From a virus (lineage: Duplodnaviria; Heunggongvirae; Uroviricota; Caudoviricetes): a stretch of 34,757 bases of DNA. Under the pieces are notes generated by a model that worked only from the letters and a program-made list of their open reading frames with translations, did no database searches and was not told the origin of the DNA. Of the stretch, positions 541 to 34,757 are shown one piece after another. The position numbers and the translations under genes were made by a program. Each line of letters starts with the position of its first letter. The stretch's first letter is position 1. The stretch is taken from the IMG/VR virus record IMGVR_UViG_2778261151_000006, positions 1 to 34,757 of that record, one strand, 5' to 3'.

Positions 541-921
541 TTATGAGTTCTGGAATTCTTCTGCCCGTCTTTCCAGCTCAGCCATGAAAGAAGTTTTGGC
601 TTTTTCGTGAGCATCTGGGGCCATGATGCTGATGATTTGTATATTGTCATAATCCATCCAGTGCCTTGTATAAACCAGATAGATATTTGAAGTTCTGTCT
701 ATTTGGGCTTTGCTTTTCTTCCATGGTGGTTCTGACGGTAGTCTTATGTGTAATTTATATACAAACGAACCACATAATCTTGCGTTATCTTCCCACTGCC
801 CTTCATTGCCGAATCTGTCAGGGAGAACACCGGTATTTAACCAGTTTTCCAGAGCCTTTCCGTAAACTTTTGCAATGTCCTGGTATTCAACATCTTTATG
901 AATGCTTACTTTGCTTGCCAT
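541..921 (-). CDS. Hypothetical protein (126 aa), translationally coupled to the upstream gene
   Basis: ORF with ATGA stop/start overlap at 921 and GGAG 8 nt upstream of the ATG; no family recognised by eye. Confidence 0.55.
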   Translation of the reverse strand: MASKVSIHKDVEYQDIAKVYGKALENWLNTGVLPDRFGNEGQWEDNARLCGSFVYKLHIRLPSEPPWKKSKAQIDRTSNIYLVYTRHWMDYDNIQIISIMAPDAHEKAKTSFMAELERRAEEFQNS

Positions 922-6039: not shown

Positions 6040-8833
6040 TATCCGGGTCGCTTTCAGCGCTGTTGACAGGCTGACCCGGCCTGCCGAAAACGCCCGCCGC
6101 CTGATGGGGCGGTTTGGTGACTCCATCCAGCGAACGCAGGGGGCGATCAAAAATCTCGAGCGTCAGGCGCGTTCATTTGAGCGCGCCCGTGACGCTGTCA
6201 GTACAGCGGATGCGGGCATCGTGAAAGCACGACGCCAGCTTAACGCCCTTAATCAGTTACAACGCACGGGTACAGTGCTCAGCGAAAAACAACAAAAGCT
6301 GATGCAGCAGTTAAGCACCCGGCTTGAACGCCTGAATGAATCGCGCGCACGGGAAATTCAGAAAATGCGGGAGCTTGGCGGAGAGCTGAAACGCCACGGC
6401 ATTTCCCTGACAGGCAGCGATAACACCATCCAGCAGGCCATCAGACGCACCGAACAGTACAACAACCAGCTTGAACGCGAACGGCAGGCGCTTGCGCGTG
6501 TAACGCGGGCGCGTGAGCGGTATTCGCGCTCGCAGGAAACTGCGGGGAAACTGAAAACAGGTGGTGCGCTGGCAACAGGTGCGGCAGCGGCGGGCGGCTA
6601 TGCTGCCGGGCGTTTTTTACAGCCCGCGATCGGGTTCGGGAAAGAGATGTCCCGCGTTCAGGCACTGACGCGAATCGACCAGAACAGCCCGCAGTTTAAG
6701 GCGCTGCGTGAGCAGGCGTTAAAACTTGGCTCTGAAACGCAGTTCACCGCTGGAGATGCCGCCAGTGGACAGGCATTTCTTGCAATGGCTGGCTTCACAC
6801 CACAGGCCATTCAGGCTGCGCTTCCCGGCGTGCTGAGCATGGCAACGGCTGGCGGTATGGATCTCGGCGAGACGGCGGATATTGGCTCAAATATCCTGAC
6901 GCAGTTCGGCCTTTCTGCTGACCAGATGGACCGGGTCGGTGACACGCTCACCGCAGCGTTTACCCGTACCAACACTGACCTTCGCGCACTGGGCGAAACC
7001 ATGAAATATGCAGGTCCGGTGGCGGGTAAGCTGGGAATATCGCTGGAGCAGGCCGCAGCGATGGCGGGCGTGCTGGCGAATATGGGTATCAGGGGAAGTG
7101 ATGCCGGGACGGCAATGCGTGCCAGCCTGGCTCGTCTGGCATCACCGCCAAAGGCGGCAGCAGAGGCGCTGAAAGAGCTGGGCGTGTCTGTCTCGGATGC
7201 CGGGGGCAAAATGCGCCCGATGGAAGATCTGCTGACTGACCTTTATAAAGCCACCCGCAAATACGGAGAAGTTGATCGGGTATCGTTCTTTAAGGACATT
7301 GCCGGAGAAGAGGCTTTCACATCATTTATGGCCCTCGTTGATGCGGCAGGTGACGGATCCTTACCTAAACTGAGAAAAGAACTTGAAGGCGCACGCGGTG
7401 AGGCTGAACGCACGGCAAAGGTTATGGCCAACAACCTTGACGGCGATCTGAAATCACTCGGCAGTGCATGGGAAGGGTTGCGCATCCGCATTGCAGATCT
7501 GATTGACGGTCCGCTGCGTTCTGTCACGCAGTGGCTCACGCGGGTGGTATCAAAGGTGACGGCGCTGGCGCAGGCCCATCCGGCACTGACGCGCCAGCTA
7601 CTGATTGCAGGTGGGGCGTTGCTGGCGATGACTGCAACGGTCGGCTCGTTGTCGCTGGCTATTGGTGTGCTTGCTGGCCCGCTGGCAAAACTGCGTCTTG
7701 GCTTTTCCCTCCTGACCGGATCAATGAATGCTGTCAGGCTCCTGCCAGCACTATGGGGAATGGTGACGGGTTCCGTTTCGTTACTGGGGGGCGCTATCGG
7801 GGCGCTGATCAGTCCGGTTGGTCTTATCGTGGCTGCGCTTGCCGGAGCTGCCGTTCTTATCTGGAAATACTGGGATCCCATCAGGGCATTTTTTGCCGGG
7901 GTGTTCAGCGGGATTATGGAAAGGCTGACCCCGTTGCGCGAAACCTTTGAACGGTTTGGTCCTGTTTTTGACGCAATCGGAAGCGGGATCAGCCAGGTGT
8001 TTAACTGGTTTAAATCGCTGCTGTCACCGATGGAGTCCAGCAAGGAAACGCTGGATAAATGTACCAGTGCTGGCGAGATATTCGGTAACGTTCTTGGCGG
8101 TGCGTTACAGCTTGTTCTGACACCTGCAAAAATGCTACTGGATACGCTGGCGTGGATACTTGAAAAACTTGGCGTCCTTCCGGATGAAGCGGAAAAGGCG
8201 CGCAAGAAAATCGAAGACGCACAGCGTGCGGCCATTCTTCAGAACAAGGTTGCCTTGCTTCAGGGGGACCTTGCGAAAATCAATCCGCCGAAGCCTGTGG
8301 AAAATGGCAATGGCACCGGAGGTGATAAACCCAAAGACAACAAACCGCTCACAGACAGCAATACCGGGACGCTACGCAGACTCAGCAAAATTGCTGATAA
8401 CACAGGTAAGCTGGTTGATGAGACGAAAAAACGCATTGGCCCTGGCGATATTGTCTTTAAGAACCTGCCCCGCGCACTTGCTGTTCGTGGGGAGTGGCAG
8501 GAGCGGAAGATTGCGCAGGTCAGTAAGCCTGCCCCCGCAATTAATATCACACCCGTAGTCCCGGCTCCGCTGCCTCCGGCGCTGGTCCCTGTTGTTGCGG
8601 CCAGCTCCCGCCCGGTGGCGGAGGCCATACGATCGCCAGTGGCATCAGTTCCTGCAGCTTCCCGTAATCGGGAGCCTGCTGTCTCCAGATTTGGCGGTGA
8701 AATTCATGTTCATCTGCATAACGTTGTTACGCAGAATCCCCGCGAACTGGCGAAACTGGTCGGTGAAATGGTCAGGGCAGAGATGGAACGGCGCGCCCGT
8801 GCCGGACGTGGCAGTTTTTACGATAAAGATTGA
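6026..8833 (+). CDS. Tail tape measure protein (P2 gpT-like)
   Basis: Long ORF with coiled-coil N-terminus and hydrophobic glycine-rich central segments; start uncertain (5990, 6017 or 6026). Confidence 0.9.
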   Translation: MKTLDIRVAFSAVDRLTRPAENARRLMGRFGDSIQRTQGAIKNLERQARSFERARDAVSTADAGIVKARRQLNALNQLQRTGTVLSEKQQKLMQQLSTRLERLNESRAREIQKMRELGGELKRHGISLTGSDNTIQQAIRRTEQYNNQLERERQALARVTRARERYSRSQETAGKLKTGGALATGAAAAGGYAAGRFLQPAIGFGKEMSRVQALTRIDQNSPQFKALREQALKLGSETQFTAGDAASGQAFLAMAGFTPQAIQAALPGVLSMATAGGMDLGETADIGSNILTQFGLSADQMDRVGDTLTAAFTRTNTDLRALGETMKYAGPVAGKLGISLEQAAAMAGVLANMGIRGSDAGTAMRASLARLASPPKAAAEALKELGVSVSDAGGKMRPMEDLLTDLYKATRKYGEVDRVSFFKDIAGEEAFTSFMALVDAAGDGSLPKLRKELEGARGEAERTAKVMANNLDGDLKSLGSAWEGLRIRIADLIDGPLRSVTQWLTRVVSKVTALAQAHPALTRQLLIAGGALLAMTATVGSLSLAIGVLAGPLAKLRLGFSLLTGSMNAVRLLPALWGMVTGSVSLLGGAIGALISPVGLIVAALAGAAVLIWKYWDPIRAFFAGVFSGIMERLTPLRETFERFGPVFDAIGSGISQVFNWFKSLLSPMESSKETLDKCTSAGEIFGNVLGGALQLVLTPAKMLLDTLAWILEKLGVLPDEAEKARKKIEDAQRAAILQNKVALLQGDLAKINPPKPVENGNGTGGDKPKDNKPLTDSNTGTLRRLSKIADNTGKLVDETKKRIGPGDIVFKNLPRALAVRGEWQERKIAQVSKPAPAINITPVVPAPLPPALVPVVAASSRPVAEAIRSPVASVPAASRNREPAVSRFGGEIHVHLHNVVTQNPRELAKLVGEMVRAEMERRARAGRGSFYDKD

Positions 8834-20695: not shown

Positions 20696-21748
20696 TTAGC
20701 TGTCGGCGAACTTCAGGCCAGTGACCATCGCGCACTTGCCATAGTCTTCAACGACATAAGCGTCATTGATGGACTGGTAGGTGGCGATGCGGTTGTATTC
20801 CGGTTCGTCTTTCATCAGACGACGCATTGAACCTTTCTGCCAGTAAATCGACAGGTTGTTGAATGAGGTGATCAGCATCGTTGCATCCGGGAAGAACGGT
20901 GCAAGGAACACACCCAGCCCGCCAATGGTGCGCGATGACAGGATGAGCTGCCCGGCAAGTAATTCCGCATTGGGATTCTGGCCGCTGATGCTGTTCAGCA
21001 CTGGCAGACGCAGCGAGTTAAACAGGTTGCGCCCCATAATCACCACGAGGTCGTCAGCTTCCTTGTGCCATTCATCCAGCAGAGATGAGCGCGCGTCCTG
21101 TACCAGTGCATCAGGGTTCGCGTATTTACCCGCGTGCGCCACGGTGTTGTCCATGTTGCGGGAAGTCAGCGTCACGTCATTCATTACGCGCTCGCTGGCA
21201 TTGGTTCTGATGTGCTCCAGCCACCCCACGTTAACGTCCTGAAGCAGCTTGTTGGTGCTGAAGTTGGACTCATCCGCGTGAGATGTGCCGTTGAAACCGA
21301 TCATGATGCGGTCAAGTGCCACCTGTCGGGCAATCTGTGCGCTGATGCGGGACTGAAAATCAGGATGTGCCGCCCAGGCATCAAGCTGCGGATATGAAAT
21401 AAACGTGTCGTAGTTCACCTGTTCGCACTGGTATTTGCGGTTTTTCAGATCAACCACGTTATTCGGGTTACGGCGTTTTGTGCCGTCATAACTGGTATTC
21501 GTGCGTGCAATTGGCCCGGTGGTGTCCAGGAGGATTTTTTCGCCTTTCTGGTCGGTCACGCCGATCACGTTAATTCTTTTTGTAAATTCGGTGCTTTCCT
21601 TTGAGGCGTTTTCAAAACGCTGCTGCACCGAGGGTTCCACGGTAAATCGCGATACCAGCGCAGAAACCGGGATATTGTTAAGCGACGCCTGCTGCGCCAT
21701 ATAGCAACCCAGCTTGTTGCGGGTAATATCTGACATCACCAGATTCAT
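20696..21748 (-). CDS. Major capsid protein (P2 gpN-like)
   Basis: 350 aa; motifs FTVEPS, GFNG, LQDV-VGWL, DYVVEDY match P2 N as recalled; GGAG SD before ATG 21748. Confidence 0.9.
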   Translation of the reverse strand: MNLVMSDITRNKLGCYMAQQASLNNIPVSALVSRFTVEPSVQQRFENASKESTEFTKRINVIGVTDQKGEKILLDTTGPIARTNTSYDGTKRRNPNNVVDLKNRKYQCEQVNYDTFISYPQLDAWAAHPDFQSRISAQIARQVALDRIMIGFNGTSHADESNFSTNKLLQDVNVGWLEHIRTNASERVMNDVTLTSRNMDNTVAHAGKYANPDALVQDARSSLLDEWHKEADDLVVIMGRNLFNSLRLPVLNSISGQNPNAELLAGQLILSSRTIGGLGVFLAPFFPDATMLITSFNNLSIYWQKGSMRRLMKDEPEYNRIATYQSINDAYVVEDYGKCAMVTGLKFADS

Positions 21749-21770
21749 AAAAATTTGCTCCTTTGTCTTA

Positions 21771-22761: not shown

Positions 22762-24513
22762 ATGATTCAGGACGCTTTTGTGCGCCAGCGTGCGCGGCAA
22801 CTTTACTGGCAGGGTTATCCACCCGCAGAAATATCACGTCTGATGGGAATAAACCCGAACACGATTTATGCGTGGAAAAAACGCGACCAGTGGGATGAAA
22901 CGCCACCCGTGCAGCGTGTCACGCAGTCCATCGATGCGCGCCTCATCCAGCTTACTGAAAAACAGAATAAAACAGGCGGTGACTTTAAGGAAATAGACCT
23001 GCTGACCCGGCAGCTTAAAAAACTGCATGATGGCCAGCCGGATGCGACGGCCACAGGAAAGAAAGGCCGGGCGAAAAAACTCAAAAATCATTTCACGCCG
23101 GAGCAGATTGCCGCACTGCGGGAAAAAATCATCAGCAGGCTGGAGTGGCATCAGCGGGGCTGGTTTGACTCCCTGACCCTTTGCAGTGAAGCCGGGATAC
23201 GTAACAGGATGATCCTGAAATCCCGACAGATTGGGGCGACCTGGTATTTTGCACGGGAAGCACTGCTGATGGCGCTGCGTGACGATGTGGCACAACCTTA
23301 CCAGCGTAACCAGATTTTTTTGTCTGCGTCGCGTCGTCAGGCGTTCCAGTTTAAAAGCATTATTCAGAAGGCCGCGGCTGAAGTTGATGTGGAGCTGAAA
23401 GGGGGCGATAAAATCATCCTCTCCAACGGCGCAGAACTGCATTTTCTCGGTACTTCTGCTGCGACGGCACAGTCCTACACAGGCAATTTTTATTTTGATG
23501 AATTTTTCTGGGTCAGTCGCTTTGCTGAACTGCGCAAGGTGGCTGGCGCTATGGCAACCCTCAGCGGGCTGCGACGCACCTACTTCTCCACGCCATCCAC
23601 CGAAACGCACGAGGCATACGTCTACTGGAACGGCGACCGCTGGAACGAGAAAAAGGCCGCGCATAAACGCCAGCGTTTTTCTGTGGACTGGAAAACGCTG
23701 CATAACGGGCTTATCTGCCCCGACCGGACGTGGCGGCAAATTGTCACGCTGGAAGATGTGGTTAATCACGGCTGGAAACACACCGATATTGATGAAATTC
23801 GTGATGAAAACACCGAAGACGAGTTCCGCAATCTCTATATGTGTGAGTTTGTCCGCGAAGGGGAATCGGCATTTAACCTGAATATCCTGATTGGCTGCGG
23901 TGTTGATGGATACGACGACTGGAAAGACTGGAAACCTTTTGCTCCCCGCCCGATGGGGAATCGTCCGGTATGGATTGGGTATGACGCAAACGGCAGCAGT
24001 GGAAACGGCGACAGCGGCGCTGTGTCCGTGGTGGTTCCTCCGGCTGTTCCTGGTGGCCGTTTTCGAACGGTGGAGACGCGACGCGTTCAGGGGCTGGAGT
24101 TTGAAGAACAGGCCAGAGTCATTGAAGAGTTCACGTGTCGCTACAACGTGGAACACATCGGCATTGATGCGACTGGCGGGCACGGGGATGCCGTTTATCA
24201 GATAGTGAAACGGTTTTTCCCTGCTGCTATTCCGTACACCTTCACGCTGTCATCAAAACGGTCGCTGGTACTGAAAATGCTGCAAATAATGCGTGCCGGG
24301 CGGTGGGAATACGATCGCGCCGAACGCGAGCTGGTCGCGGCCTTTAACGCCGTGCGTAAGGTGAAAACACCGGGCGGCTTTATCACTTACGAAACGGACC
24401 GCGCGAGGGGGATCAGCCACGGCGACCTTGCGTGGGCAACCATGCTTGCTGTCATTAATGAACCGATTGGCGGCGAAGGAGAAAACGAGCGTTTCACGGT
24501 TATGGAGTTCTGA
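22762..24513 (+). CDS. Terminase large (ATPase) subunit (P2 gpP-like)
   Basis: 583 aa, N-terminal RQLYWQGY region, central ATPase and C-terminal nuclease-like part; GGGGGA SD. Confidence 0.9.
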   Translation: MIQDAFVRQRARQLYWQGYPPAEISRLMGINPNTIYAWKKRDQWDETPPVQRVTQSIDARLIQLTEKQNKTGGDFKEIDLLTRQLKKLHDGQPDATATGKKGRAKKLKNHFTPEQIAALREKIISRLEWHQRGWFDSLTLCSEAGIRNRMILKSRQIGATWYFAREALLMALRDDVAQPYQRNQIFLSASRRQAFQFKSIIQKAAAEVDVELKGGDKIILSNGAELHFLGTSAATAQSYTGNFYFDEFFWVSRFAELRKVAGAMATLSGLRRTYFSTPSTETHEAYVYWNGDRWNEKKAAHKRQRFSVDWKTLHNGLICPDRTWRQIVTLEDVVNHGWKHTDIDEIRDENTEDEFRNLYMCEFVREGESAFNLNILIGCGVDGYDDWKDWKPFAPRPMGNRPVWIGYDANGSSGNGDSGAVSVVVPPAVPGGRFRTVETRRVQGLEFEEQARVIEEFTCRYNVEHIGIDATGGHGDAVYQIVKRFFPAAIPYTFTLSSKRSLVLKMLQIMRAGRWEYDRAERELVAAFNAVRKVKTPGGFITYETDRARGISHGDLAWATMLAVINEPIGGEGENERFTVMEF

Positions 24514-25559
24514 TGAGCAGAAAAAATAAAAAAGTGCGCATGAGTTCACGCATTGATCTCGCTGATGCGCTCAGGAAAGAATCATCGCTCAGTGCATTCA
24601 CATTTGATGGTCCTTATCGCCTGACCGGGCATGACCTGCTGGACAATATGTACTGTGCTGATAACGGGCGGTGGTATGAAACCCCGGTGGACTGGTACGG
24701 TCTGGCAAGAGCTGCCCGGCAAACGTCCTGGCATCAGTCTGCGCTTTACTTTAAGCGCAATGTATTGCTCGGCTGCTATATTCCGCACCCGCTGCTTTCC
24801 CGGCAGGATTTCTCGGCGCTGGCGCTGGACTGGTTTGTGTTCGGTAACGCATTCCTTGAGCTTCGGAGCAATATGCTCGGCGAACCGCTTAAATTACGGC
24901 ACGCCCTGGCGAAATACATGCGACGCGGAAGCGATCTTGAATCATGGTGGTATGTGCAGGATGGCAAGGATGCGTTTCAGTTTCGTCCTGGCAAAGTGTG
25001 CCACCTGATGAATCCGGATATTAACCAGGAAATCTACGGCATGCCGGAATATCTTGGCGCATTACTCTCGGCCAGCCTTTCTCATTCGGCGGACATGTTC
25101 AGAAAACTGTACTACGACAACGGATCCCACGCCGGGTGCATCATCTACATCGGTGCAGCGCAGGTAAACCGCGAAAGCATGGACTCCCTGAAAGAAACGC
25201 TACAGGGGGCACGTGGTGGTGGTGCGTTTAAAAACGTGCTCATTCATGCGCCCAACGGGGGCAAAGAGGGGGTGCAAATTTTGCCGTTCCAGCAGATCAC
25301 CGCAAAGGATGAGTTCATGAATGTTAAGGCGGCATCCCGTGATGATGTGCTGGCTGCGCACCGCGTTCCGCCGCAACTGATGGGGGCGATGCCGGGCGAA
25401 AAAAGTGCGTTTGGTGATGTGGAGAAGGCCGCGCGGGTTTACGCAATTAACGAGCTGATGCCCGTCATGGAGGCCATGAAGCACATCAATGACTGGCTTG
25501 GCGAAGAGGTGATCCGCTTTAACCCTTACGCACTGTTAGACACCCAGCCCACATCCTGA
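24513..25559 (+). CDS. Portal protein (P2 gpQ-like)
   Basis: 348 aa; start overlaps terminase stop (TGATG); size and position. Confidence 0.9.
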   Translation: MSRKNKKVRMSSRIDLADALRKESSLSAFTFDGPYRLTGHDLLDNMYCADNGRWYETPVDWYGLARAARQTSWHQSALYFKRNVLLGCYIPHPLLSRQDFSALALDWFVFGNAFLELRSNMLGEPLKLRHALAKYMRRGSDLESWWYVQDGKDAFQFRPGKVCHLMNPDINQEIYGMPEYLGALLSASLSHSADMFRKLYYDNGSHAGCIIYIGAAQVNRESMDSLKETLQGARGGGAFKNVLIHAPNGGKEGVQILPFQQITAKDEFMNVKAASRDDVLAAHRVPPQLMGAMPGEKSAFGDVEKAARVYAINELMPVMEAMKHINDWLGEEVIRFNPYALLDTQPTS

Positions 25560-26034
25560 CGCGCTTCGCTTGTCTGCTGCTTCGCCGGGGCATAAAAAAT
25601 TTATGCCCCGACTCTCCAGCTCCTGTATCAGTCAGATAATTTCACGACGCTTTCCTGCTGATTGCCATCATCGACAGTCAGACTCTTACGCAATCCCACC
25701 TCGTTGACTGCATATTCTCGCCGTCTCAGTGCGATTTTGACGGCCTTACCTTTCACCCCATCAAATCAAAAGCCCTCACGTCTTTTTCACGCTCAGCGTG
25801 AGAAATACAGCCATTCTGTTGTATCTCTGCGACATCGTTCAGGGAATGCTATTTACCCCCTGAAACGCGGGCTGTTCCCCCGTCACCTGCGCGCAGAAAA
25901 AACGCGTTTTTTTGTGCATGCACGGATCCTTGACGGATCCAGCCGCCACGCGGGCCGGAAGGGCAAAAAGTCGTTCAAAAAAATTGTGCAAATTTGTGCA
26001 CTATTGTGCATTTATAAAATCAACTAAAAAACAC
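25560..26034. other. Non-coding cos-proximal region (predicted packaging site region)
   Basis: 475 bp without credible ORF between portal gene and accessory genes; contains the palindromes ggggcataaaaaatttatgcccc, a6cgcgt6 and ggatccttgacggatcc; exact cos ends not identified. Confidence 0.4.
25984..26010. repeat. Three TTGTGCA direct repeats phased at 10-bp intervals
   Basis: ttgtgca at 25984, 25994 and 26004; helical phasing suggests a protein-binding array. Confidence 0.5.
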
Positions 26035-26050
26035 CTAGTGTGACTTACCT

Positions 26051-26236
26051 CTACCACTCGATCGGCACGTAGTCATTAAGTTCCGGAGACCAATTGCACT
26101 TTTCACATCTGTGTTTTCCATTCTGGCAGATACATAAACGATAACGGCCACAATGCGGGCACCCATTTTCACCATTATCATAATCACCGAGCGACCATTC
26201 CTGCATAAGCAGCTCTTCTTCATCATCATTTAGCAT
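26051..26236 (-). CDS. Hypothetical small zinc-ribbon protein (61 aa)
   Basis: CPHCGRYRLCICQNGKHRCEKC cysteine pattern; acidic N-terminus; last gene of the cos-proximal accessory operon. Confidence 0.5.
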   Translation of the reverse strand: MLNDDEEELLMQEWSLGDYDNGENGCPHCGRYRLCICQNGKHRCEKCNWSPELNDYVPIEW

Positions 26237-26250
26237 TAATCCCCCTTGAG

Positions 26251-26490
26251 CTATTTACTCTTCTCGGCCCTCAAAATCATACGAGAACCATCATCCAGCT
26301 CCCAATTAATTTCACCGCCTTCTGCCATGACTAGATGCCAAACGAGTTGAGCGGCCTCGTTGGTTACATCGCGACCGCGATCATTTCCTACGCGGCGTTT
26401 TGTTCCGTCTCCTAAGTCACGCATTTTTGCCAATACGATGGTTTTTGATAGCGGTGAAAAACCAAGCTGTAGTCGTGCTGAATTACTCAC
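26251..26490 (-). CDS. Hypothetical protein (79 aa)
   Basis: ORF whose start overlaps the upstream stop by 4 nt (ATGA); no family recognised. Confidence 0.5.
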   Translation of the reverse strand: MSNSARLQLGFSPLSKTIVLAKMRDLGDGTKRRVGNDRGRDVTNEAAQLVWHLVMAEGGEINWELDDGSRMILRAEKSK

Positions 26491-27011
26491 TGGCTGCCCC
26501 CTTTGTACTGTGTTAACTCTTCCTGCTCCTGCATCATGCGATTGACCTGAACGCGTGTGCGTCGAACGGCAAAATTAAATTGAAACATGAGCCGGAACAT
26601 TTCTGATGCTTCCGTGTGAGCATCACGGATAGGTGACAGGCGGTACAGTTCTGCCTCCGTAGCTTGTTGAATCAATGACAGATCAAATTGAAGTGCGGGT
26701 CTGGTACATTTTGCACATCTGGCAGCAAGCTCCGGTATTAGTCTCTTAACGAAGGTGTTTTGCACCGCTTTGTTGATTTGTGTCTGCATCCAAATCGCAA
26801 ATTTCAGCGAACGCATAAGTTTGATAGCCTCGGGCAGCGGCAGATAGATCATGCTGGTAGATTTGGGTGGTTGGTGAACCATCTTCACGGATACGCGATT
26901 TCGCAGCGTTCGGAAAATCGTGTTCCCAACAACAGCTTCTACGGATACAGGACAGGGAGCCAGACCAGCCCGCAGTGCTTCTTTCATTAGCATGTATTCG
27001 TATTTTTTCAT
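26487..27011 (-). CDS. Hypothetical protein (174 aa)
   Basis: ORF with GAGGAAAA SD; no family recognised. Confidence 0.55.
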   Translation of the reverse strand: MKKYEYMLMKEALRAGLAPCPVSVEAVVGNTIFRTLRNRVSVKMVHQPPKSTSMIYLPLPEAIKLMRSLKFAIWMQTQINKAVQNTFVKRLIPELAARCAKCTRPALQFDLSLIQQATEAELYRLSPIRDAHTEASEMFRLMFQFNFAVRRTRVQVNRMMQEQEELTQYKGGSQ

Positions 27012-27071
27012 CGTGTTTTCCTCGTGCGGGGCGACAGTGCACCCCGATAAAATTAAAAGCCGTCAAATTCG

Positions 27072-27383
27072 TCATTCAGGAAATAATGCCCGGATATTCC
27101 CTGCTATCTGACTGGTTATCTGTGCGGTTGGTACTGGCTGTGGCACGGGGCGTTCTGTCCTGGTTTGTGTCACCGATAACGCCTCATCGTCAGCCCATGC
27201 AGCCAGTCGGTAAGCCTCTGCTGGATTCATTTTCAGAAGTGCCAGCCCGGCCAGAAAAGCCACGCGTTGGCCGCTTTTGCGGGCTTCTGGTGTAAGGCTG
27301 CCCAGCAAGGCGCATGCTTCGCTTTCGTTCTTGACGGCCGCAGGCTTCAGATAGAAACTTATCCGTCTGGTTGGTGTCGTCAT
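27072..27383 (-). CDS. parR: ParR-like centromere-binding protein (type II partition)
   Basis: 103 aa from ATG 27381-27383, 4 nt after parM stop with AAGGAG SD; segments RRISFYLKP, AFLAGLAL, IRALFPE resemble plasmid R1 ParR as recalled. Confidence 0.65.
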   Translation of the reverse strand: MTTPTRRISFYLKPAAVKNESEACALLGSLTPEARKSGQRVAFLAGLALLKMNPAEAYRLAAWADDEALSVTQTRTERPVPQPVPTAQITSQIAGNIRALFPE

Positions 27384-27387
27384 TGGT

Positions 27388-28347
27388 TTACTCCTTGTCC
27401 ATTGCGTACAGCCCATTAACCAGAGCAAACTGTGGCACCCCGTCCGCGATGAAAGTCGCATTAACTCCGCAGGCTTCGCGGATAGCGGGTGCCACAATCT
27501 CCGCCCCTCCACCGACAACCATCACCCGCCCGTAACCCGAAAAACCCGCCAGCGCGCGGATCACGCGTTGTTTCAGTGTTTCTTCCTTTTCACGAATAAC
27601 CGCCATCAGGCTGGCGTAATGCGCGTCATTGTGGATGTGCTGGCGCAGCCAGGCTTCATCATGGCGATGTTCGATAATGGTATTGGCGATGTGGTGACTG
27701 GTGCGCATACCGTTAGTGGCCATCACCGACAGTACGGCATCGGCCATCAGAGAAACGCCTACGTGTGGATCGCAAAACACCTGGCTGATACCTGCCAGTT
27801 GCCCCTGAACCTTTGCCACATCCAGCGTGGTTCCGCCCAAATCCACAATCAGCAGGGATTCAAACGGACTCATGTCAGCCAGTGCCTTAAAGCCAGCCGG
27901 AATGGATTCAGGCATAACCCGCACGTTACGGATAGTGAATGCTTCGCCGTTCTGGTACTCCACCGGGCGCATAACGTTCGCTTTTTTGCGGTTGATGTTG
28001 GCCATGTCCGGCTGTGCGTTTGTGTCGAAATACTCGCTCAGTGGCAGGGTGACAACCACATCCACCTCCTGTGGCGTGATGCCTGATTTGACCAGCGCGT
28101 GATGAATGGCAATGACATTTACATCGCTGTATTGGTATTGCGTGTCGGTTGTCTGGACAAAGCGATCGCTGACCGGATCAAAACCATAGCGCACGCCATC
28201 AAGCATGTAGTTCGCGGGCTGCATGCCACCGAACGGCGCAGACCATTCCGACTTGAAGCTGTTCGGGCTGATGGCGTTGCGGCGTTCGCCGTTCTCAGTC
28301 CATGCCAGCTTGATGTTGGTGGAGCCGTCGTCGATACAAATTTTCAT
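27388..28347 (-). CDS. parM: ParM/StbA-like actin-family segregation ATPase
   Basis: 319 aa; N-terminus MKICIDDGSTNIKLAW and motifs YSDVNV-AIHHAL, VDLGGTTLDV, GVSL, VVGGGAE match R1 ParM as recalled. Confidence 0.85.
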   Translation of the reverse strand: MKICIDDGSTNIKLAWTENGERRNAISPNSFKSEWSAPFGGMQPANYMLDGVRYGFDPVSDRFVQTTDTQYQYSDVNVIAIHHALVKSGITPQEVDVVVTLPLSEYFDTNAQPDMANINRKKANVMRPVEYQNGEAFTIRNVRVMPESIPAGFKALADMSPFESLLIVDLGGTTLDVAKVQGQLAGISQVFCDPHVGVSLMADAVLSVMATNGMRTSHHIANTIIEHRHDEAWLRQHIHNDAHYASLMAVIREKEETLKQRVIRALAGFSGYGRVMVVGGGAEIVAPAIREACGVNATFIADGVPQFALVNGLYAMDKE

Positions 28348-28378
28348 GTCGCTTTTCCTTATGTTGATTAATTAATCG

Positions 28379-28490
28379 ATTACGGGATTCTGAAATCCCG
28401 TTTTTGCCTGTTTTGTGCGCGCTTCATATATCGCTGCGCGTTTTTTGCTCATTTACGGGATTCGTGAGTCCCGTTTCTGTCTGTTTTTTG
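28379..28490. repeat. Two about 39-bp direct repeats, each with a hairpin-forming palindrome, upstream of parM and overlapping the 3' end of A
   Basis: attacgggattctgaaatcccgtttttgcctgttttgtg (28379-28417) and atttacgggattcgtgagtcccgtttctgtctgttttttg (28451-28490). Confidence 0.5.
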
Positions 28491-31264
28491 TTTCCACTGG
28501 TCAGGCCACCCCGCAGCAGGTCTGCTTTGCGGCGGGCGCGTTCAGTGGTTTCACTGATTCTCTGTGCGTGCTCTGCGTCGCGGATGGCGCGCAGCATGTC
28601 AGAAAGCACGGTAACGGGTGTTTTCATGGTGTTCTGGTCCTGCTGAAGTATGGATGCCAGGCGTGCGGCTGCTTCGGGGTCTGATGTCCCCAGCTGTTCC
28701 AGATAGCTGGCGACAGGGTTATGACGGATCTCCGTGCTGCTTACGCCGTGATTACGGCTCAGGCGTTGCCAGAGTTGCGTGATTCGGCTGTCCGGGCGGG
28801 TATCCGGTTTGCGTACAATTTCAAATCCCTGCGGTGCAATGATGCTGCCGTCAACGTACAGACTGCCGCCCCGTAACAAGTGCTGCATCTGTTGTTCACC
28901 GATATGCAGGCCGAGAGATTCAGCAGACTCCCGCCATTCTTTAGCGAGTAATTCGTGGTTATCAGGCAAAGGCCGCGGCTGTTTGCGGCTCTGCGTCCAG
29001 TTCTGCATTTCATCACTGCTGTTTTTTGCCTGTTTGTCACGAAGCGAACGCATCAGCGCCCGGCGTTCGTGCCGTTTCAGTGAGCGCATCCATTCGTTCA
29101 CTTCAACGCCGTCAGGGAGCTGCGGCCACGGTGCTGGCCGTTCTTCCGGCTGTTCTGTCCCGTTGTTGTTCGTTTCCTGTACACGGGGACAGTTATTGCC
29201 ACGAGTCCAAGGGGCGGCAGGGCCGCCCTGAAGGTCAAAACCATTTTCGCGGGCGCTGTCTTCCGCTTCCGGTTTGCGTCTTACCAGCTTCCAGTTATCC
29301 GGATGCGTGCACACACGGGAGGATTCCCCGATGAGTGGTGACCAGATCCCGTAAATCTGTACGCTCTGTTCGCCGTAATCGTTCAGCTCATCTGCGAGGT
29401 CGTAGGCGGTGCGAATCAGGTAGTCCTTGCGTGGAACAAGTACGCCGCCCTGTTTCTCTATGTAGGTGGCAAAACATCCGGCATCAGCGGCAGCGAGTAC
29501 CGCATCCATTGCGTCATCCTTCAGCCGTTGCGGGCCTTCCGGGTTGCGTGCCATCTGGCTGGCAAGGCGGCGGAGTTCACGCCATACCTGACGGGAGGGG
29601 ATGCCAAAGAACTGGAACTGGCGGACCCGGTGAAGGCGCGCCCAGCCGATGGCGCGTTCCACACTCTCGGCCATTGATTTTCCGGTTTCGTGGTCAACGC
29701 GTGGCTTGCCCGTTTTCGGGTCGATGCCATCCACGGCGCGGCTGTCCAGGTTCTTTCCGATGTAGGTGGCGATGTAGCTGGTTGGCGTGCCTTTTGAGCC
29801 GTCGACGTACTCCGCCTTAAAACGCGGAGTTATGTCATCGCCCAGCTCGTGGCGGTCTTCCTGAATGGCAATATCGCGGGTGATGGCCACGATGCTGTCG
29901 ATTTCTTCCGGATGAGCAAAGACCATCATGTGCCAGTGCACGGTGCCGTCATGGTGAGGCTCCACCGTGCGGATGCCATACCAGCGCAGGCCGTCGCGGT
30001 TCAGTTTTTTGCGGACCGCCGCAAAAAACGTGTTAACCAGGTAATCGCTGGAGTCGCGCATGGTGGCCCCGTTCCATTTGGGGTTCGGATGACCGTTCTC
30101 CGTTGTTGCGTGGTATTTTGACGGGCAGGTGACAGTCAGAAACACCGCTCTGTCGCCACGGGCTTCGGCCAGAAGTTCCAGTCCCTTCATGGTGGCCATC
30201 ATTTCTGCCTTACGGTGAACCGGGTTACTTACTCCCGCGTAATACACTGTCTCGAGATCAATCGTGAACCCGTCTTCATTTTCCAGCATGAAACTTTTCA
30301 GGAAATCGCGTGTTTTCTCGCGTTGTGCGCGAAACTCGCTTAACGCGTCCTGGCTCAGATAGGGTGATGTTTTTCTGGAAACCAGACAGGCGGCGCGGAG
30401 TTGTTCTTCCCGCCACTCGCAACGTAACAGCCACAGTTTGCGTTTCCACCATTCCGCACAGGTCAGGCGAAGGATTGCGCCCGGCAGCAGCTCCGTATTC
30501 GGTGCGTTCTTCCGGTCTTTGTCCGTTCTCAGTGCTTCGTAATGCGGCGGCATGGCGTGCAGGTGTAACGCCATGCGGGCCAGCATCTGATACGCCTTCA
30601 GCGTTACATCCATGGTCAGTTCGCCATCAGTCGCGCCAAAGCCATCGCAGAGTTTTTCGAAGGTGCTGCTGAACATCGCCGCCGTCATGGTGGCCAGCGT
30701 CTGTATCTGGTGTTTGTTGAGCTGCGGCAGGTAAAGCAAATCGTCCAGGCGTTCGCGTCCGGCAAGGGAGCGATAACCCGGTGTCAGCCAGCGGTGATCG
30801 GTGCGGTCCAGACGTTCGAATATTTTGCGCAGGGTTCCGCGCGCGTAGCGTTCAGCCTGCCAGCTCTTTTTGCCTTTCTGGCGATCGGCTTCCTGTTTTT
30901 TGCGCAGGAAAGAGAGGTGGCGGCTCAGAGGCTCACGCAGATAAACGGGAAGCACCTTCAGTGTGGCAAAAGCACGGGCCACCGGGTCTTGTTCTGTTGC
31001 CTGACGCTTGCTGATGATGCTTTGTGCCAGCTTTTCACGCTGTCCGGCTTCCTCAAGGGATGCCATGAGTTTTTTACCCACGGTGGATTGTGCGAAAAAG
31101 GCTTCCTCCTTCGCTTCCTGTTCTTCCAGAGCCTTTTTGTCTGCCTCAAGGTAGTAACGGATGGCGCGTTGCAGGTCGGTTTCAGTTTCCTGCCTGTGCT
31201 CCGTAAATCTGGCCGGATCAATGGCTGGCCGTGGTTCATTCCAGCTCCATGCAAACTCACTCAT
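28424..31264 (-). CDS. Replication initiation protein (P2 gpA-like rolling-circle endonuclease)
   Basis: 946 aa from ATG 31262-31264 (ATGA overlap with upstream gene); HUH-like motif HHDGTVHWHMMVF and tyrosine motif YIATYIGK. Confidence 0.85.
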   Translation of the reverse strand: MSEFAWSWNEPRPAIDPARFTEHRQETETDLQRAIRYYLEADKKALEEQEAKEEAFFAQSTVGKKLMASLEEAGQREKLAQSIISKRQATEQDPVARAFATLKVLPVYLREPLSRHLSFLRKKQEADRQKGKKSWQAERYARGTLRKIFERLDRTDHRWLTPGYRSLAGRERLDDLLYLPQLNKHQIQTLATMTAAMFSSTFEKLCDGFGATDGELTMDVTLKAYQMLARMALHLHAMPPHYEALRTDKDRKNAPNTELLPGAILRLTCAEWWKRKLWLLRCEWREEQLRAACLVSRKTSPYLSQDALSEFRAQREKTRDFLKSFMLENEDGFTIDLETVYYAGVSNPVHRKAEMMATMKGLELLAEARGDRAVFLTVTCPSKYHATTENGHPNPKWNGATMRDSSDYLVNTFFAAVRKKLNRDGLRWYGIRTVEPHHDGTVHWHMMVFAHPEEIDSIVAITRDIAIQEDRHELGDDITPRFKAEYVDGSKGTPTSYIATYIGKNLDSRAVDGIDPKTGKPRVDHETGKSMAESVERAIGWARLHRVRQFQFFGIPSRQVWRELRRLASQMARNPEGPQRLKDDAMDAVLAAADAGCFATYIEKQGGVLVPRKDYLIRTAYDLADELNDYGEQSVQIYGIWSPLIGESSRVCTHPDNWKLVRRKPEAEDSARENGFDLQGGPAAPWTRGNNCPRVQETNNNGTEQPEERPAPWPQLPDGVEVNEWMRSLKRHERRALMRSLRDKQAKNSSDEMQNWTQSRKQPRPLPDNHELLAKEWRESAESLGLHIGEQQMQHLLRGGSLYVDGSIIAPQGFEIVRKPDTRPDSRITQLWQRLSRNHGVSSTEIRHNPVASYLEQLGTSDPEAAARLASILQQDQNTMKTPVTVLSDMLRAIRDAEHAQRISETTERARRKADLLRGGLTSGNKKQTETGLTNPVNEQKTRSDI

Positions 31265-31650
31265 GGCTGGTATCCCGTCACGCGCTGCCACTCCTGCGAG
31301 AAGAGGGCAGAAAGGCGGTTAAATTCAGCGGTGTATTCACTCAGCGAGGCACACCCGCCAGCAGTGCGATGCGCCAGCATTGCCGCAAATACGGAGGCCG
31401 GGGAGTCGTAATACGCCAGCAGTGATTCTCCGTGTGGTGTCAGGCAGTGCAACGCCAGCCCGTGTGGTGTGAAGTCCACGCGGTAGCAGTCGTCTACTGT
31501 GAAATAAAGGGTGTCTGCATTCTCCGGTTTTGTGGTGCGTGCTCTGTTGTCACGACCACGGATGTAGAGATCAAATAATCCCTGAAGAACGGGAGCCAGA
31601 CGGGTGTCCTGTGTGCGCACCCATCTTGTGAAGTCATGAGCGTCAATCAT
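31261..31650 (-). CDS. Hypothetical early protein (129 aa)
   Basis: ORF translationally coupled to A. Confidence 0.55.
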   Translation of the reverse strand: MIDAHDFTRWVRTQDTRLAPVLQGLFDLYIRGRDNRARTTKPENADTLYFTVDDCYRVDFTPHGLALHCLTPHGESLLAYYDSPASVFAAMLAHRTAGGCASLSEYTAEFNRLSALFSQEWQRVTGYQP

Positions 31651-31722
31651 GCTGCAATTCTCTTTACTACAGATGTGCGAAGGCCTCCCGCCGCAAGGTG
31701 CAGGAAAGGCCCGGAACAGGAA

Positions 31723-31953
31723 TTAATGGAGTTTGTTTTGCTGCTGGAAGAGTTGTTGCAGCTCGCGCAGATCATCCGCCAGATAGCTGAAAACAGAGGC
31801 GGAATAGATGTTCGATAGCGCGTGGCTGCGCTCATGCAGCATATTGATGTGCATGATTTGCGCGACGCGTGATGCGCGGAAAAGTCTACGGTTGATTTCA
31901 GTCTGGATGTGACGACGCGCAGCGTATGCGCGCTGTTGTTTGCGGTTTGCCAT
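31723..31953 (-). CDS. Hypothetical small basic protein (76 aa)
   Basis: ORF preferred over an overlapping 205-aa low-complexity ORF; weak evidence. Confidence 0.4.
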   Translation of the reverse strand: MANRKQQRAYAARRHIQTEINRRLFRASRVAQIMHINMLHERSHALSNIYSASVFSYLADDLRELQQLFQQQNKLH

Positions 31954-32130
31954 GGTGTGGCCTCTTTGCTCGGTGATAGAAATAGCTCACCATCCAGAGT
32001 TGAGAATCTCGGGGTGGCGAGACGTACAGGGTTCTCAACACCGGAGAGCAAAGAATCCGGCCCGACCGAAGTCGGCCCCGTACGCCCCGCCATAATTCTG
32101 ACGCGAAAAAGACGTGGCAATACAGTACGC

Positions 32131-32153
32131 ACAAAAAAACCGCTGGCGCGGTT
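32131..32153 (-). terminator. Rho-independent terminator within the early-region gap
   Basis: Hairpin aaccgc-tggc-gcggtt followed on the minus strand by 7 T. Confidence 0.5.
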
Positions 32154-32275
32154 ATGCGCTTTGCTCTGTATCGGGTTGAGAATCCCGGCACCCGTTTTAT
32201 GAGGTGCAGCGGAAATGTAACCTGACCGATTGCGGCATGGCAAGCGGTTTTTTTGTGTGTGCATGTTCTGGTTTC

Positions 32276-32575
32276 TTACTGGTTCAGAAAAAAATCAAAA
32301 ACGTTATCGATGCGTTGCAGCAGCTCTTGCTGCATTGCTTCCGGCGTTTCCGGTTCGCCAGGTGCCCCCAGCGTTGCGCAGAAATCAGCGATTTCATGAT
32401 GGAGCGCCAGGCGAATGGCTGGAGACATGGTTCTGGCGTGCTCCAGCTCATCCAGCAGTGCCAGCACGGCAGACGGCGAGAGCATTGCGCGAAACGCCAG
32501 TAATTTTTGATGCGTTGCCATTCGTTGCAGGTCAATCGCCAGTTCGCGTAATTCCCGATGGTTGATGGCGCTCAT
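32276..32575 (-). CDS. Hypothetical early protein (99 aa)
   Basis: ORF; start overlaps upstream stop. Confidence 0.55.
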   Translation of the reverse strand: MSAINHRELRELAIDLQRMATHQKLLAFRAMLSPSAVLALLDELEHARTMSPAIRLALHHEIADFCATLGAPGEPETPEAMQQELLQRIDNVFDFFLNQ

Positions 32576-32817
32576 GCTCTGGCTTCCTTCAGTAGCTGGT
32601 TAAACATGTTGGTAAGTGGATTGCCGCACCCGAACGGCATCGGGTTTATCTGGTAAGAAAAGCGACCGCCTGTTTTGCGCTCTTTTCTTATGACTGAACC
32701 GCTGCGCCAGAGTCGGCGTAACTCCGCATTAATGGCTGTGGTTGGGGTATTCAGTGCTGCGGCGATTTCTCCACCGCTACACCCCGGATTGGCGGCGATA
32801 TAGTCCAGAATGGTCAT
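32572..32817 (-). CDS. Small DNA-binding protein, winged-helix-like (81 aa)
   Basis: MTILDYIAANPGCSGGEIAAALNTPTTAINAELRRLW resembles a helix-turn-helix recognition region. Confidence 0.5.
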   Translation of the reverse strand: MTILDYIAANPGCSGGEIAAALNTPTTAINAELRRLWRSGSVIRKERKTGGRFSYQINPMPFGCGNPLTNMFNQLLKEARA

Positions 32818-33017
32818 CTGCGTGACTCCTGTACCTGTCGGATAAGGTTCACCCGCACCACATTCGTGGCGCAGAAGTAAGTGCCGTCAGTGAGATAGAT
32901 GTGATGTGCATCCTTTTCTGAACGGTGTTTGTCGATTGTGGTAATCAGGCGTTCGTCGACTTCGTATTCACGTCCTCTGGAGGTAAAACGAACGACAGGA
33001 AAATGCTTAATTGCCAT
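32814..33017 (-). CDS. Hypothetical early protein (67 aa)
   Basis: ORF; overlapping stop/start with the downstream gene. Confidence 0.5.
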   Translation of the reverse strand: MAIKHFPVVRFTSRGREYEVDERLITTIDKHRSEKDAHHIYLTDGTYFCATNVVRVNLIRQVQESRR

Positions 33018-33103
33018 TACGCCTCCTTGGCGTGTGCGAATACCTCCGCGAATGCGGATTGTTTTTACATTTTCTTATTTAACCTGTGGTTTTATTTGCT
33101 CTG

Positions 33104-33217
33104 TTATTCGCCAGTGAAAAAGCGTTCAATCTTTTTTACTGAATGAATAATTCGCATAATCCCAATGGCGCAGGCCACCGAAATAATCAGAACAAGCCAT
33201 GAGATAAATATACTCAT
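33104..33217 (-). CDS. Small hydrophobic peptide (37 aa), single predicted transmembrane helix
   Basis: Not in the ORF track; MSIFISWLVLIISVACAIGIMRIIHSVKKIERFFTGE; ATG overlaps the upstream stop (ATGA). Confidence 0.4.
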   Translation of the reverse strand: MSIFISWLVLIISVACAIGIMRIIHSVKKIERFFTGE

Positions 33218-33456
33218 GCAATATTCCCCAGCTTATACGGTTCAATATGTTCCCCGCATTCTGCGGCACAGATCAGCTCGGAAAGTTCGTTAAGTGCATC
33301 CAGATCATCAGCGTAAAAAGCCACGTCATACAGACTCCGGATTGCCCTGGTCAATGAGTCACGGGCTGCACGTTCAGCATGAGCGCCTGATGCACTTAAG
33401 CGAAAATAAAATCGTTCAAGTGCTTTGTTAATGAGAGTTTTATATTCTTTGTCCAT
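33214..33456 (-). CDS. Hypothetical early protein (80 aa)
   Basis: ORF in the early operon. Confidence 0.55.
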   Translation of the reverse strand: MDKEYKTLINKALERFYFRLSASGAHAERAARDSLTRAIRSLYDVAFYADDLDALNELSELICAAECGEHIEPYKLGNIA

Positions 33457-33476
33457 TGCATTTCCTCGGAAAACAA

Positions 33477-33731
33477 TTAAACAAAATCTCTTAATGGTTT
33501 ACCTGATTCAATGCGCTCAATTGCATCGTTAATGGCCATGTATGCGGCGTGATCACCTGCATAGCGTGCGCATTCCTGTAGTGACTTTAATCCTCTGATA
33601 ATATCGCTTTTTGCTTCCGATAAAGGTTTTATCGTATTTAATGCATCGCGGGCATTATTATCTATGAGCCGGTGTATGATAAGAGAGTAGGCCGAGGCTA
33701 TCTCTACCATGTTTTTTGTCGTTGTTGCCAT
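33477..33731 (-). CDS. Hypothetical early protein (84 aa)
   Basis: ORF in the early operon. Confidence 0.55.
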   Translation of the reverse strand: MATTTKNMVEIASAYSLIIHRLIDNNARDALNTIKPLSEAKSDIIRGLKSLQECARYAGDHAAYMAINDAIERIESGKPLRDFV

Positions 33732-33734
33732 TGG

Positions 33735-34085
33735 TTAATTCCCCCGTGGATGCTGAAAACTACGACCTGCAATTAAGCGGTCAACCGTGCGTAGTGCTTC
33801 GTACAATGTGAAATCCTGTCCGAACTGATTGTCGCCGTTGCTCAGTACAAAAATGCGGTTTCCGGTAAACGGATTGTGTGGGCATCTGTGAACCACGATT
33901 CCAGCTTTCTCAATCAGCCAGGCATGCTCGCCGATTTGTTTTACAGCGTGCCCATCTGGTGTTGCGTGCGTCTCGTTCAGGTTATAGCGACTGTTACTAC
34001 GTGATGCACTGGTAGCGACGTGGTGTACATGGCGTTCTACGCCATTACGAAATTTGGAGTATGGATTATTAGTGTTTTTTTTCAT
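33735..34085 (-). CDS. Hypothetical early protein (116 aa)
   Basis: First ORF of the early operon after the IS element. Confidence 0.55.
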   Translation of the reverse strand: MKKNTNNPYSKFRNGVERHVHHVATSASRSNSRYNLNETHATPDGHAVKQIGEHAWLIEKAGIVVHRCPHNPFTGNRIFVLSNGDNQFGQDFTLYEALRTVDRLIAGRSFQHPRGN

Positions 34086-34194: not shown

Positions 34195-34757
34195 GTAAGC
34201 GGCTCGCCAGAACCGTATTGATATTTACTGAGAAGTCAGATCAACTTTCCAGGGCAACAGATCGCGTACCCGGTTTGCCGGCCAGTCCTGGATATGCTCA
34301 ATAACGTAACGCAGCCATTTTTCTGGCTCTACATTGTTCAGACGGCATGTGCCGATCAGCGAGTACAACACCGCCGCATGTTCGCCACCGCTGTCGGAAC
34401 CCGCGAAGAGCCAGTTTTTCCGGCCTACGGCCACTCCCCGTAAGGCGTTCTCTGCGATGTTGTTGTCGATTTCCACCCAGCCATTACTGCAGTACACGTT
34501 CAGGGCCTCCCACTGTTTCAGCAGGTATGTGAACGCTTTTGCCGTATCCGAGTGACGCGACAGTGTTTTCATCTGTTGCTGTATCCAGTCATACAGTGAC
34601 TGCATCAGTGGAGCCGCTCTGGCTTTTCTTGCTGCCAGACGCTGTTCTGCTGAACATCCCCGGACTTCTGCCTCGATGACATACAGTTCACCGATACGCT
34701 GCAGGGCTTCCGTGGTGATGTCGGTTGGCACTCTTGCATGCACATCGTGGATTTTTC
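34195..34757 (-). mobile_element. IS66-family insertion sequence, 3' portion (continues beyond window end)
   Basis: Terminal GTAAGCG at 34195-34201 about 30 bp past the transposase stop; IS66-family inverted repeats start with GTAA as recalled; exact boundary unverified. Confidence 0.65.
34225..34757 (-). CDS. IS66-family transposase (TnpC), C-terminal fragment truncated by the window edge
   Basis: C-terminal sequence [38 protein letters not shown] typical of IS66 TnpC as recalled. Confidence 0.8.

Follow-up and report, generated by a model that had tools for sequence, protein, structure and literature searches.

Three small genes between the replication gene gpA and the cos site of a P2-like prophage are best read as independent early accessory genes that were brought together by recombination, each encoding a protein that would act by binding. 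The prophage is IMG/VR record IMGVR_UViG_2778261151_000006, analysed over its positions 1 to 34,757 (the whole 34,757-nucleotide stretch, hereafter the window), and belongs to the P88 type (genus Xuanwuvirus, family Peduoviridae). All three genes lie on the minus strand and encode, in 5' to 3' order, a basic protein of 174 amino acids (aa) designated ORF174, a 79-aa protein of the Pfam family DUF7446, and an acidic 61-aa protein resembling a zinc ribbon, designated Zn61. We assign a probability of about 0.55 to the reading that these are three independent early accessory proteins acting by binding. A sequence-only reading, which had located the three open reading frames (ORFs) exactly, had instead proposed them as one undescribed system, possibly with an anti-phage or superinfection-exclusion role.

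Independent distributions and a mosaic junction

The distribution of each gene was surveyed in 5,426 complete E. coli genomes. ORF174 was detected in 29 genomes (31 places, all chromosomal), DUF7446 in 235 and Zn61 in one. The three genes occurred together in none of these genomes, and no locus covered 80% or more of the three-gene query. In the sole E. coli genome with Zn61, the locus carries a ClpX-type zinc-finger gene, a 75-aa gene and DUF7446, followed by Zn61, and has no ORF174. The neighbours of the genes also differed between loci. The gene following ORF174, analysed in 23 loci, was an Ead/Ea22-like gene in 18, the DUF7446–Zn61 pair in three and another gene in two. The Ead/Ea22-like gene starts at the ORF174 stop codon in all but one of the 18 loci, and this order is kept even where ORF174 is only 72–78% identical. 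DUF7446 adjoins Zn61 in only 3 of 44 viral Zn61 loci, those that resemble the window. No conserved pairing among the members of the trio was found.

A linker of ~20 nt, AAAGGAGGCAACCAGTGAG, spans the boundaries of otherwise unrelated gene pairs. It specifies the last residues of the upstream protein, ..KGG(S/N)Q*, and contains a Shine-Dalgarno sequence together with the GTG at which the downstream gene starts. Linker junctions were found between ORF174 and DUF7446 in the window, between the 75-aa gene and DUF7446 in locus L003, between ORF174 and the Ead/Ea22-like gene in L001 and L017, and between the Ead/Ea22-like gene and DUF7446 in L087 and L088. The homology breakpoints of the window sit on this linker, with matches to loci of the ORF174–Ead/Ea22 type beginning at 26483 and matches to L003 ending at 26511. 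The Zn61 cassette is shared with another P2-like lineage over a segment that opens ~30 nt ahead of the Zn61 ATG and continues across the cos flank. Because the breakpoints coincide with the linker and the Zn61 cassette is shared in this way, the trio is interpreted as a recombinant. Since the linker is common to the starts of DUF7446 and Ead/Ea22-like genes, either can replace the other behind ORF174. The separate distributions, the differing neighbours and the recombination at the linker speak against the proposal of a single co-functioning system, and the balance tips towards three independent single-gene accessory modules.

All three ORFs are under purifying selection. Pairwise ratios of nonsynonymous to synonymous substitution rates (dN/dS) were 0.18–0.33 for ORF174, including the comparison with a 46%-identical homologue, 0.08–0.31 for DUF7446 (0.08–0.09 against phage-plasmid copies) and 0.10 for Zn61. 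In the Zn61 family, residues C29, C35, C44, C47, W14, Y19 and W49 are invariant across 22 sequences, down to 61% identity, while C26 and C37 are nearly invariant; the CxxC pairs are C26/C29 and C44/C47. The selection and the invariant residues indicate that these are real genes and not chance ORFs. The GC content of the trio (0.42–0.50) is lower than that of its flanks (0.52–0.59), which fits acquired cargo.

As the sequence-only reading had recognised, the trio occupies a known hotspot of P2-like phages, located between gpA and gpQ beside cos and defined by Rousset et al. 2022 (PMC9122126). That study reports 1,650 arrangements in 18,150 E. coli hotspot loci, and a putative partition system, ParM/ParR (StbA and Plasmid_stab_B; hereafter ParMR), in the hotspot of about one quarter of E. 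coli P2-like phages (PMC9122126). Its Table S5 lists StbA and Plasmid_stab_B together with the hypothetical protein WP_000759755, a homologue of ORF174, and Ead_Ea22. The validated systems of the hotspot include old/tin, retrons, a DUF4238 protein, DprA with a phosphoribosyltransferase (PRTase), and a three-gene system without known domains (PMC9122126). In the passages retrieved from it, ParMR-associated arrangements were not among the systems tested, and the combination of ORF174, DUF7446 and Zn61 was not found. The hotspot and the ParMR/ORF174/Ead arrangement are thus already catalogued there, and the additions made here are small: this particular combination of three genes, the recognition of ORF174 as an orphan, the linker at gene boundaries and the cos linkage of Zn61.

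To sample the slot, 74 IMG/VR loci holding ParR and a portal gene were compared. These loci contained at least 15 slot arrangements, with that of the window in 3 and ORF174 in 13, identifying the slot as a real hotspot. Some slots are co-oriented strings of small genes, including ClpX-type zinc-finger, P88 gp20-like, Ead/Ea22-like, ORF174 and other genes, and in other slots the cargo is encoded on the opposite strand (memP, a 268-aa gene, DUF4760). A megablast search with positions 25560–28400 matched P88, Citrobacter phage Shae_phiSM, PhiR44_2, Chuche and others at 94–97% identity in the flanks only, and the slot content differs in these phages. Records submitted as plasmids, from Escherichia, Salmonella and Shigella, matched as well. 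The trio is not conserved in all related phages, and none of the three proteins corresponds to a core phage function.

Properties of the three proteins

The sequence-only reading had recognised no family for any of the proteins, which stands for ORF174 but not for the other two. Searches of the trio against Pfam, PHROGs, NCBIfam and PADLOC returned DUF7446, two PHROGs without known function and a sub-threshold zinc-ribbon match, yielding no functional assignment. Neither single-sequence nor profile searches of PDB sequences returned a significant match.

ORF174 is basic, with an isoelectric point (pI) of 10.0 and a net charge of about +12. It had no match in Pfam, PHROG, NCBIfam, PADLOC or PDB, and only 8 clusters were found among 5.8e9 proteins. 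A deep profile search returned 3 representatives among 1.84e9 proteins, so that it supplied no distant relatives to work with. The gene is confined to the gpA–gpQ slot of P2-like phages. ORF174 is predicted to be mostly helical, and this basic helical protein probably binds nucleic acid.

The 79-aa protein scored 61.0 bits for DUF7446 (PF24233), above the Pfam gathering threshold of 24.1 (E = 9.7e-17, covering profile positions 2–67 of 70), and corresponds to PHROG 1578, aligning with the whole DUF7446 family. The family comprises more than 370 clusters, none with a known function. No solved structure was found by PDB sequence and profile searches, a fold search gave nothing beyond a sequence homologue in phage EcP1, and no paper was found in the literature searched with the family name, protein accessions or PHROG identifiers. 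Enterobacterial prophages and phage-plasmids commonly carry DUF7446; two of the phage-plasmids have it behind an Ead/Ea22-like gene within long small-gene arrays. Further occurrences are in lambdoid phages and other phage genera, in a BASEL phage and in the virulent N4-like phage EcP1, where the gene lies in the early/middle region. Its presence in a virulent phage points to a phage-side function. The protein is modelled as a small alpha/beta domain, for which a binding or regulatory role is suggested.

Zn61 is assigned to PHROG 24897 (phrog_24897, 2.6e-46) and is acidic (pI 4.4, net charge about -8). Its likeness to zinc ribbons was below threshold, with Zn_ribbon_IS1595 at 17.1 bits versus a cutoff of 25.4, RpoM-2 at E = 0.021, and L37ae and TFIIB at E = 0.2–0.4. 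Directly beside a P2-type portal gene and cos, Zn61 was found in 16 of the 44 viral loci and in 3 of 11 genome loci, and the genes upstream of it there can be others, such as a 136-aa gene or a 532-aa gene. The remaining 28 viral loci are non-P2 contexts with heterogeneous neighbours (helicase/Cas4-like, terminase and capsid genes, NinX arrays), and one homologue lies in a small-gene array beside NinX and NinG genes. Neighbour clustering and Pfam searches revealed no conserved partner gene of Zn61 outside P2-like phages. Homologues with 60–75% identity were found in prophages of Erwinia, Pseudomonas, Lysobacteraceae, Rhodanobacter and the betaproteobacterium Craterilacuibacter, a range from Enterobacterales to Xanthomonadales and beyond to a betaproteobacterium. 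Such identity across host orders suggests a conserved host target, of which Zn61 is probably a protein-binding inhibitor or modulator. A copy identical at the protein level lies at 8025–8225 of L003 (E. coli FDAARGOS_943, NZ_CP065615.1, ~21558–21754) and is unannotated in RefSeq. In two P2-like prophages, L172 (Erwinia psidii) and L063, cos-flank-like sequence was observed ahead of Zn61, whose own end is ~37 bp away from the portal gene; this placement suggests that Zn61 may be across cos there.

Gene organization and neighbouring features

The genes gpA, parM, parR, ORF174, DUF7446 and Zn61 form a string in one orientation that ends at cos (Table 1). Beyond cos, the portal and terminase genes are encoded on the other strand. 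The position of the trio between gpA and cos agrees with the sequence-only reading, which had missed the ParM and ParR genes between them. The close spacing that it had noted was also borne out: the ORF174 stop codon and the DUF7446 GTG start overlap in GTGA at 26487–26490, and 14 nt, CTCAAGGGGGATTA, carrying the Shine-Dalgarno sequence GGGGGA separate the DUF7446 stop codon from the Zn61 ATG. In the annotation of relatives, ParR has a 103-aa form.

Table 1 Positions of the trio and of the features around it in the window
Feature	Positions	Strand	Basis or remark
ORF174, 174 aa, ATG start	26487-27011	minus	ORF list
DUF7446 / PHROG 1578 protein, 79 aa, GTG start	26251-26490	minus	ORF list, Pfam and PHROG
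Zn61, acidic zinc-ribbon-like protein, 61 aa, PHROG 24897, ATG start	26051-26236	minus	ORF list and PHROG
Boundary linker AAAGGrGGCArCCAGTGAG	26486-26504	minus	Same motif in L001, L003, L017, L087, L088
ORF174-module leader	27012-27071	minus	Hairpin 27027-27046 without U-tract; GAGGAAAA ribosome-binding site
ParR (Plasmid_stab_B)	27072-27383	minus	Pfam 1.9e-22; directly upstream of the ORF174 module
ParM, actin-like segregation ATPase	27388-28347	minus	StbA_N 2.7e-82; ParM C-terminal domain 1.3e-68
gpA replication endonuclease, left hotspot border	28424-31291	minus	Phage_GPA 1.2e-130
Portal gpQ, right hotspot border	24513-25559	plus	ORF; labelled portal in P88 and relatives
Candidate cos cohesive-end core, 19 nt, GGTGACGGGGGAACAGCCC on the minus strand	25869-25887		Predicted from the sequence
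Three TTGTGCA/TGCACAA repeats	25984-26011		Include a weak hairpin and T-run, 26001-25986 (minus); terminator-like match

No convincing internal promoter or terminator was found in the gpA-to-cos string. A promoter search before the trio and before Zn61 gave one weak consensus match, inside DUF7446, and matches were fewer than in shuffled sequence. Homology limits show that the leader between parR and ORF174 goes with ORF174 and not with parR. Its hairpin has a folding energy of -14.4 kcal/mol and z = 0.12, and is therefore not a convincing terminator. A search of Rfam gave zero RNA families within or beside the trio.

The candidate cos core lies ~165 bp from the end of the trio. It is identical to P2 cosR at 13 of 19 positions and falls within an invariant 21-mer common to a different P2-like lineage (L011, L014). 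The TGCACAA repeats near cos are conserved in L011, L014 and L003. The repeats and the 21-mer with its cosR-like 19-mer are probably packaging signals, and the repeat region may mark the end of a transcript or bind a protein at the cos flank. The hairpin downstream of Zn61 folds no better than shuffled sequence. A 50-aa ORF at 25839–25991, which overlaps the repeats and the 21-mer, is probably spurious.

Just upstream of the parM start, two 38-nt direct repeats were observed at 28380–28417 and 28453–28490, 73 nt apart and each with a 20-bp palindrome, ACGGGATTC..AATCCCGT; one lies within the 3' end of gpA. These are candidate parC/ParR-binding sites.

Elsewhere in the window, positions 1–303 hold tRNA genes for Gly-GCC, Cys-GCA and Leu-TAA, indicating a chromosomal prophage beside tRNAs, probably at its attachment region. 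Between this cluster and gpD, an ORF of the YafO toxin family (541–921, minus strand, 1.1e-27) overlaps an upstream 212-aa ORF (921–1559) that has no Pfam match, and the two may form a toxin-antitoxin-like pair at the prophage edge. At the other end, a C-terminal fragment of an IS66-family transposase (34225–34743, minus strand) directly follows the phage DUF4761 gene (33735–34085). Genes for an integrase or a repressor were not seen in the window, so the immunity/integrase end may be interrupted or lie outside it. Rfam matches to C4 antisense RNA (78.5 bits) and isrK (62.8 bits) were observed at 32010–32207 on the minus strand, within the region of a 205-aa ORF (31647–32264) with a weak Ash-family match. 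By these matches, the region is a putative RNA immunity element of the P1/P7/P4 type inside a P2-like phage.

Alternative readings and known systems

In the reading we favour, the trio would be the distal end of the gpA-to-cos string, probably read from upstream promoters, and its genes would be translationally coupled. Its members may have been drawn from a pool of small accessory genes of temperate enterobacterial phages and phage-plasmids that includes the Ead/Ea22-like genes; small-gene arrays of other phage types likewise contain homologues of DUF7446 and Zn61. The DUF7446–Zn61 block would have taken the place of the Ead/Ea22-like gene that is usual behind ORF174. Each product would be a small protein that serves the phage through binding or regulation, with likely roles in host takeover, the lysis-lysogeny decision or counter-defence rather than in a three-part protection of the lysogen. 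The arrays in which ORF174 and DUF7446 adjoin Ead/Ea22-like genes are the counterpart of the Ead/Ea22 neighbourhood in lambdoid phages, and in lambda the genes of this neighbourhood are expressed early, are dispensable and modulate the choice between lysis and lysogeny (PMC8614690). The early-accessory assignment is based on a layout like that of P2 orf91, on the arrays of the Ead/Ea22 neighbourhood and on the occurrence of DUF7446 in a virulent phage; we infer the co-transcription, the expression timing and the biochemical roles.

Several points weigh against this assignment. Validated defence systems reside in the same slot of other P2-like phages, and new defence genes often match nothing. 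If a parMR promoter active in lysogens is present, it could express the trio in the lysogen. The arguments from shared orientation and from occurrence in a single virulent phage are circumstantial. The AlphaFold2 (AF2) models of ORF174 (mostly helical) and DUF7446 have low confidence, with predicted local distance difference test (pLDDT) scores of 49.8 and 57.3, respectively, and fold searches with them were uninformative. In addition, the coupling of ORF174 with Ead/Ea22-like genes in most loci suggests that ORF174 may ordinarily act together with a partner that is missing here.

We consider it unlikely that one gene, several genes or the whole trio provides a new anti-phage defence or superinfection exclusion expressed from the prophage, as the sequence-only reading had suggested. 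The location among validated systems (PMC9122126), the highly variable slot content and the GC content below that of the flanks would all suit such cargo. However, no positive evidence for it emerged: PADLOC-DB matched no family at E ≤ 1 with any of the three proteins. These are also very small, with neither an enzymatic nor a sensor domain, and the genes do not co-occur as a unit. They have no detected promoter of their own and follow the early-operon orientation, as does orf91 and unlike old/tin, and an N4-like phage that is strictly virulent carries DUF7446, as do other phage types. A narrower proposal is that at least one gene of the trio encodes a new single-protein effector. Zn61, which recurs as the terminal gene beside cos in divergent P2-like phages, would be the best candidate, perhaps inhibiting a conserved host machine or a defence system in a new way; ORF174 together with its usual Ead/Ea22-like partner could likewise constitute a new two-gene function. 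We regard this proposal as doubtful. Zn61 might instead serve a cos-linked function of P2-like phages, as a packaging or DNA-end accessory or as an acidic protein of the anti-restriction type at the genome terminus. This would account for its strong acidity, for its position beside portal and cos whatever the upstream cargo, which is held even in distant P2-like phages with a portal identity of 42–50% (Erwinia, a Pseudomonas metagenome-assembled genome, Craterilacuibacter), and for the inter-lineage DNA homology that runs from upstream of its ATG through the cos flank. A cos-linked function is nevertheless quite unlikely given the many non-P2 contexts of Zn61 and the absence of a detectable promoter of its own upstream in L011; its rarity in E. 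coli, where P2-like prophages are common, indicates that it is not needed for packaging.

An association with ParMR, in which the trio would serve maintenance or addiction in the manner of a toxin-antitoxin module, or would assist partition as a cofactor during a plasmid lifestyle, is highly improbable. It draws on the placement of the trio directly downstream of parM and parR in the same orientation, on the overlapping stop and start codons, as in toxin-antitoxin pairs, and on the possibility that the basic ORF174 binds DNA. A P88-like element of phage-genome size from E. coli (H2, NZ_CP148288.1, 34,461 bp) was moreover deposited as a plasmid, consistent with ParMR letting some P88-like phages persist as episomes. 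Yet the ORF174 homologue in L019 (ORF173) occurs without ParMR, and ORF174 is separated from parR by a gene for single-stranded DNA-binding protein (SSB) and a ClpX-type zinc-finger gene in L017 and likewise by other genes in L027. In most ParMR loci none of the three genes is present, the elements that carry Zn61 or DUF7446 mostly have no ParMR, and no toxin or antitoxin family was matched in Pfam, NCBIfam or PADLOC. The exclusively chromosomal location of ORF174 in E. coli argues in the same direction.

The preferred reading of three independent accessory genes implies that the cos-proximal hotspot of P2-like phages does not hold defence cargo only, part of the slot in P88-like phages being a co-oriented array of tiny genes. 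At least some slot genes are swapped singly at a shared boundary of ~20 nt, and adjacency in this slot does not imply a system, a point relevant to the mining of hotspots for defence. The analysis also flags three uncharacterised families: the basic orphan ORF174, DUF7446, and the acidic, cos-linked and widely conserved putative zinc ribbon Zn61.

Compared with known systems, Zn61 resembles the TraR/DksA C4 zinc fingers (lambda Orf73, P2 Orf82) in its small size, acidic N-terminus and two CxxC pairs. A relationship to them was rejected, as no zf-dskA_traR Pfam match was found and hhalign gave 0.3% against P2 Orf82 and 0.15% against lambda Orf73. The cysteine spacing and predicted strands of Zn61 fit a zinc ribbon, not the helix-finger-helix of TraR. 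The trio shares with the hotspot cargo of Rousset et al. the A-to-Q slot beside cos and its highly variable content, but matches no validated system there. It encodes no ATPase or nuclease, in contrast to P2 old/tin, and while old/tin is antisense with its own mapped transcript start, the trio is co-oriented and has no predicted promoter of its own.

A closer parallel in organization is seen with the lambdoid exo-xis and P22 'ea' genes (Ea22, Orf60a, Orf61, Orf63, Orf73), which likewise form small, tightly packed, non-essential and shuffling arrays, although the element hosting the trio is a P2-like phage. Ead/Ea22-like genes are direct neighbours of ORF174 and of DUF7446 in related loci, an association that was not seen for Zn61. 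Homology of the trio to the exo-xis ORFs themselves was rejected, since BLASTP against all ORFs of lambda 27500–33500 (int-to-cIII) gave none at E ≤ 1. With P2 orf91 (DUF3850), a co-oriented gene that prolongs the early operon of P2, the trio shares no sequence similarity but has a common layout: it comes directly after the replication genes, on their strand, and so looks like a continuation of the early operon inside the hotspot.

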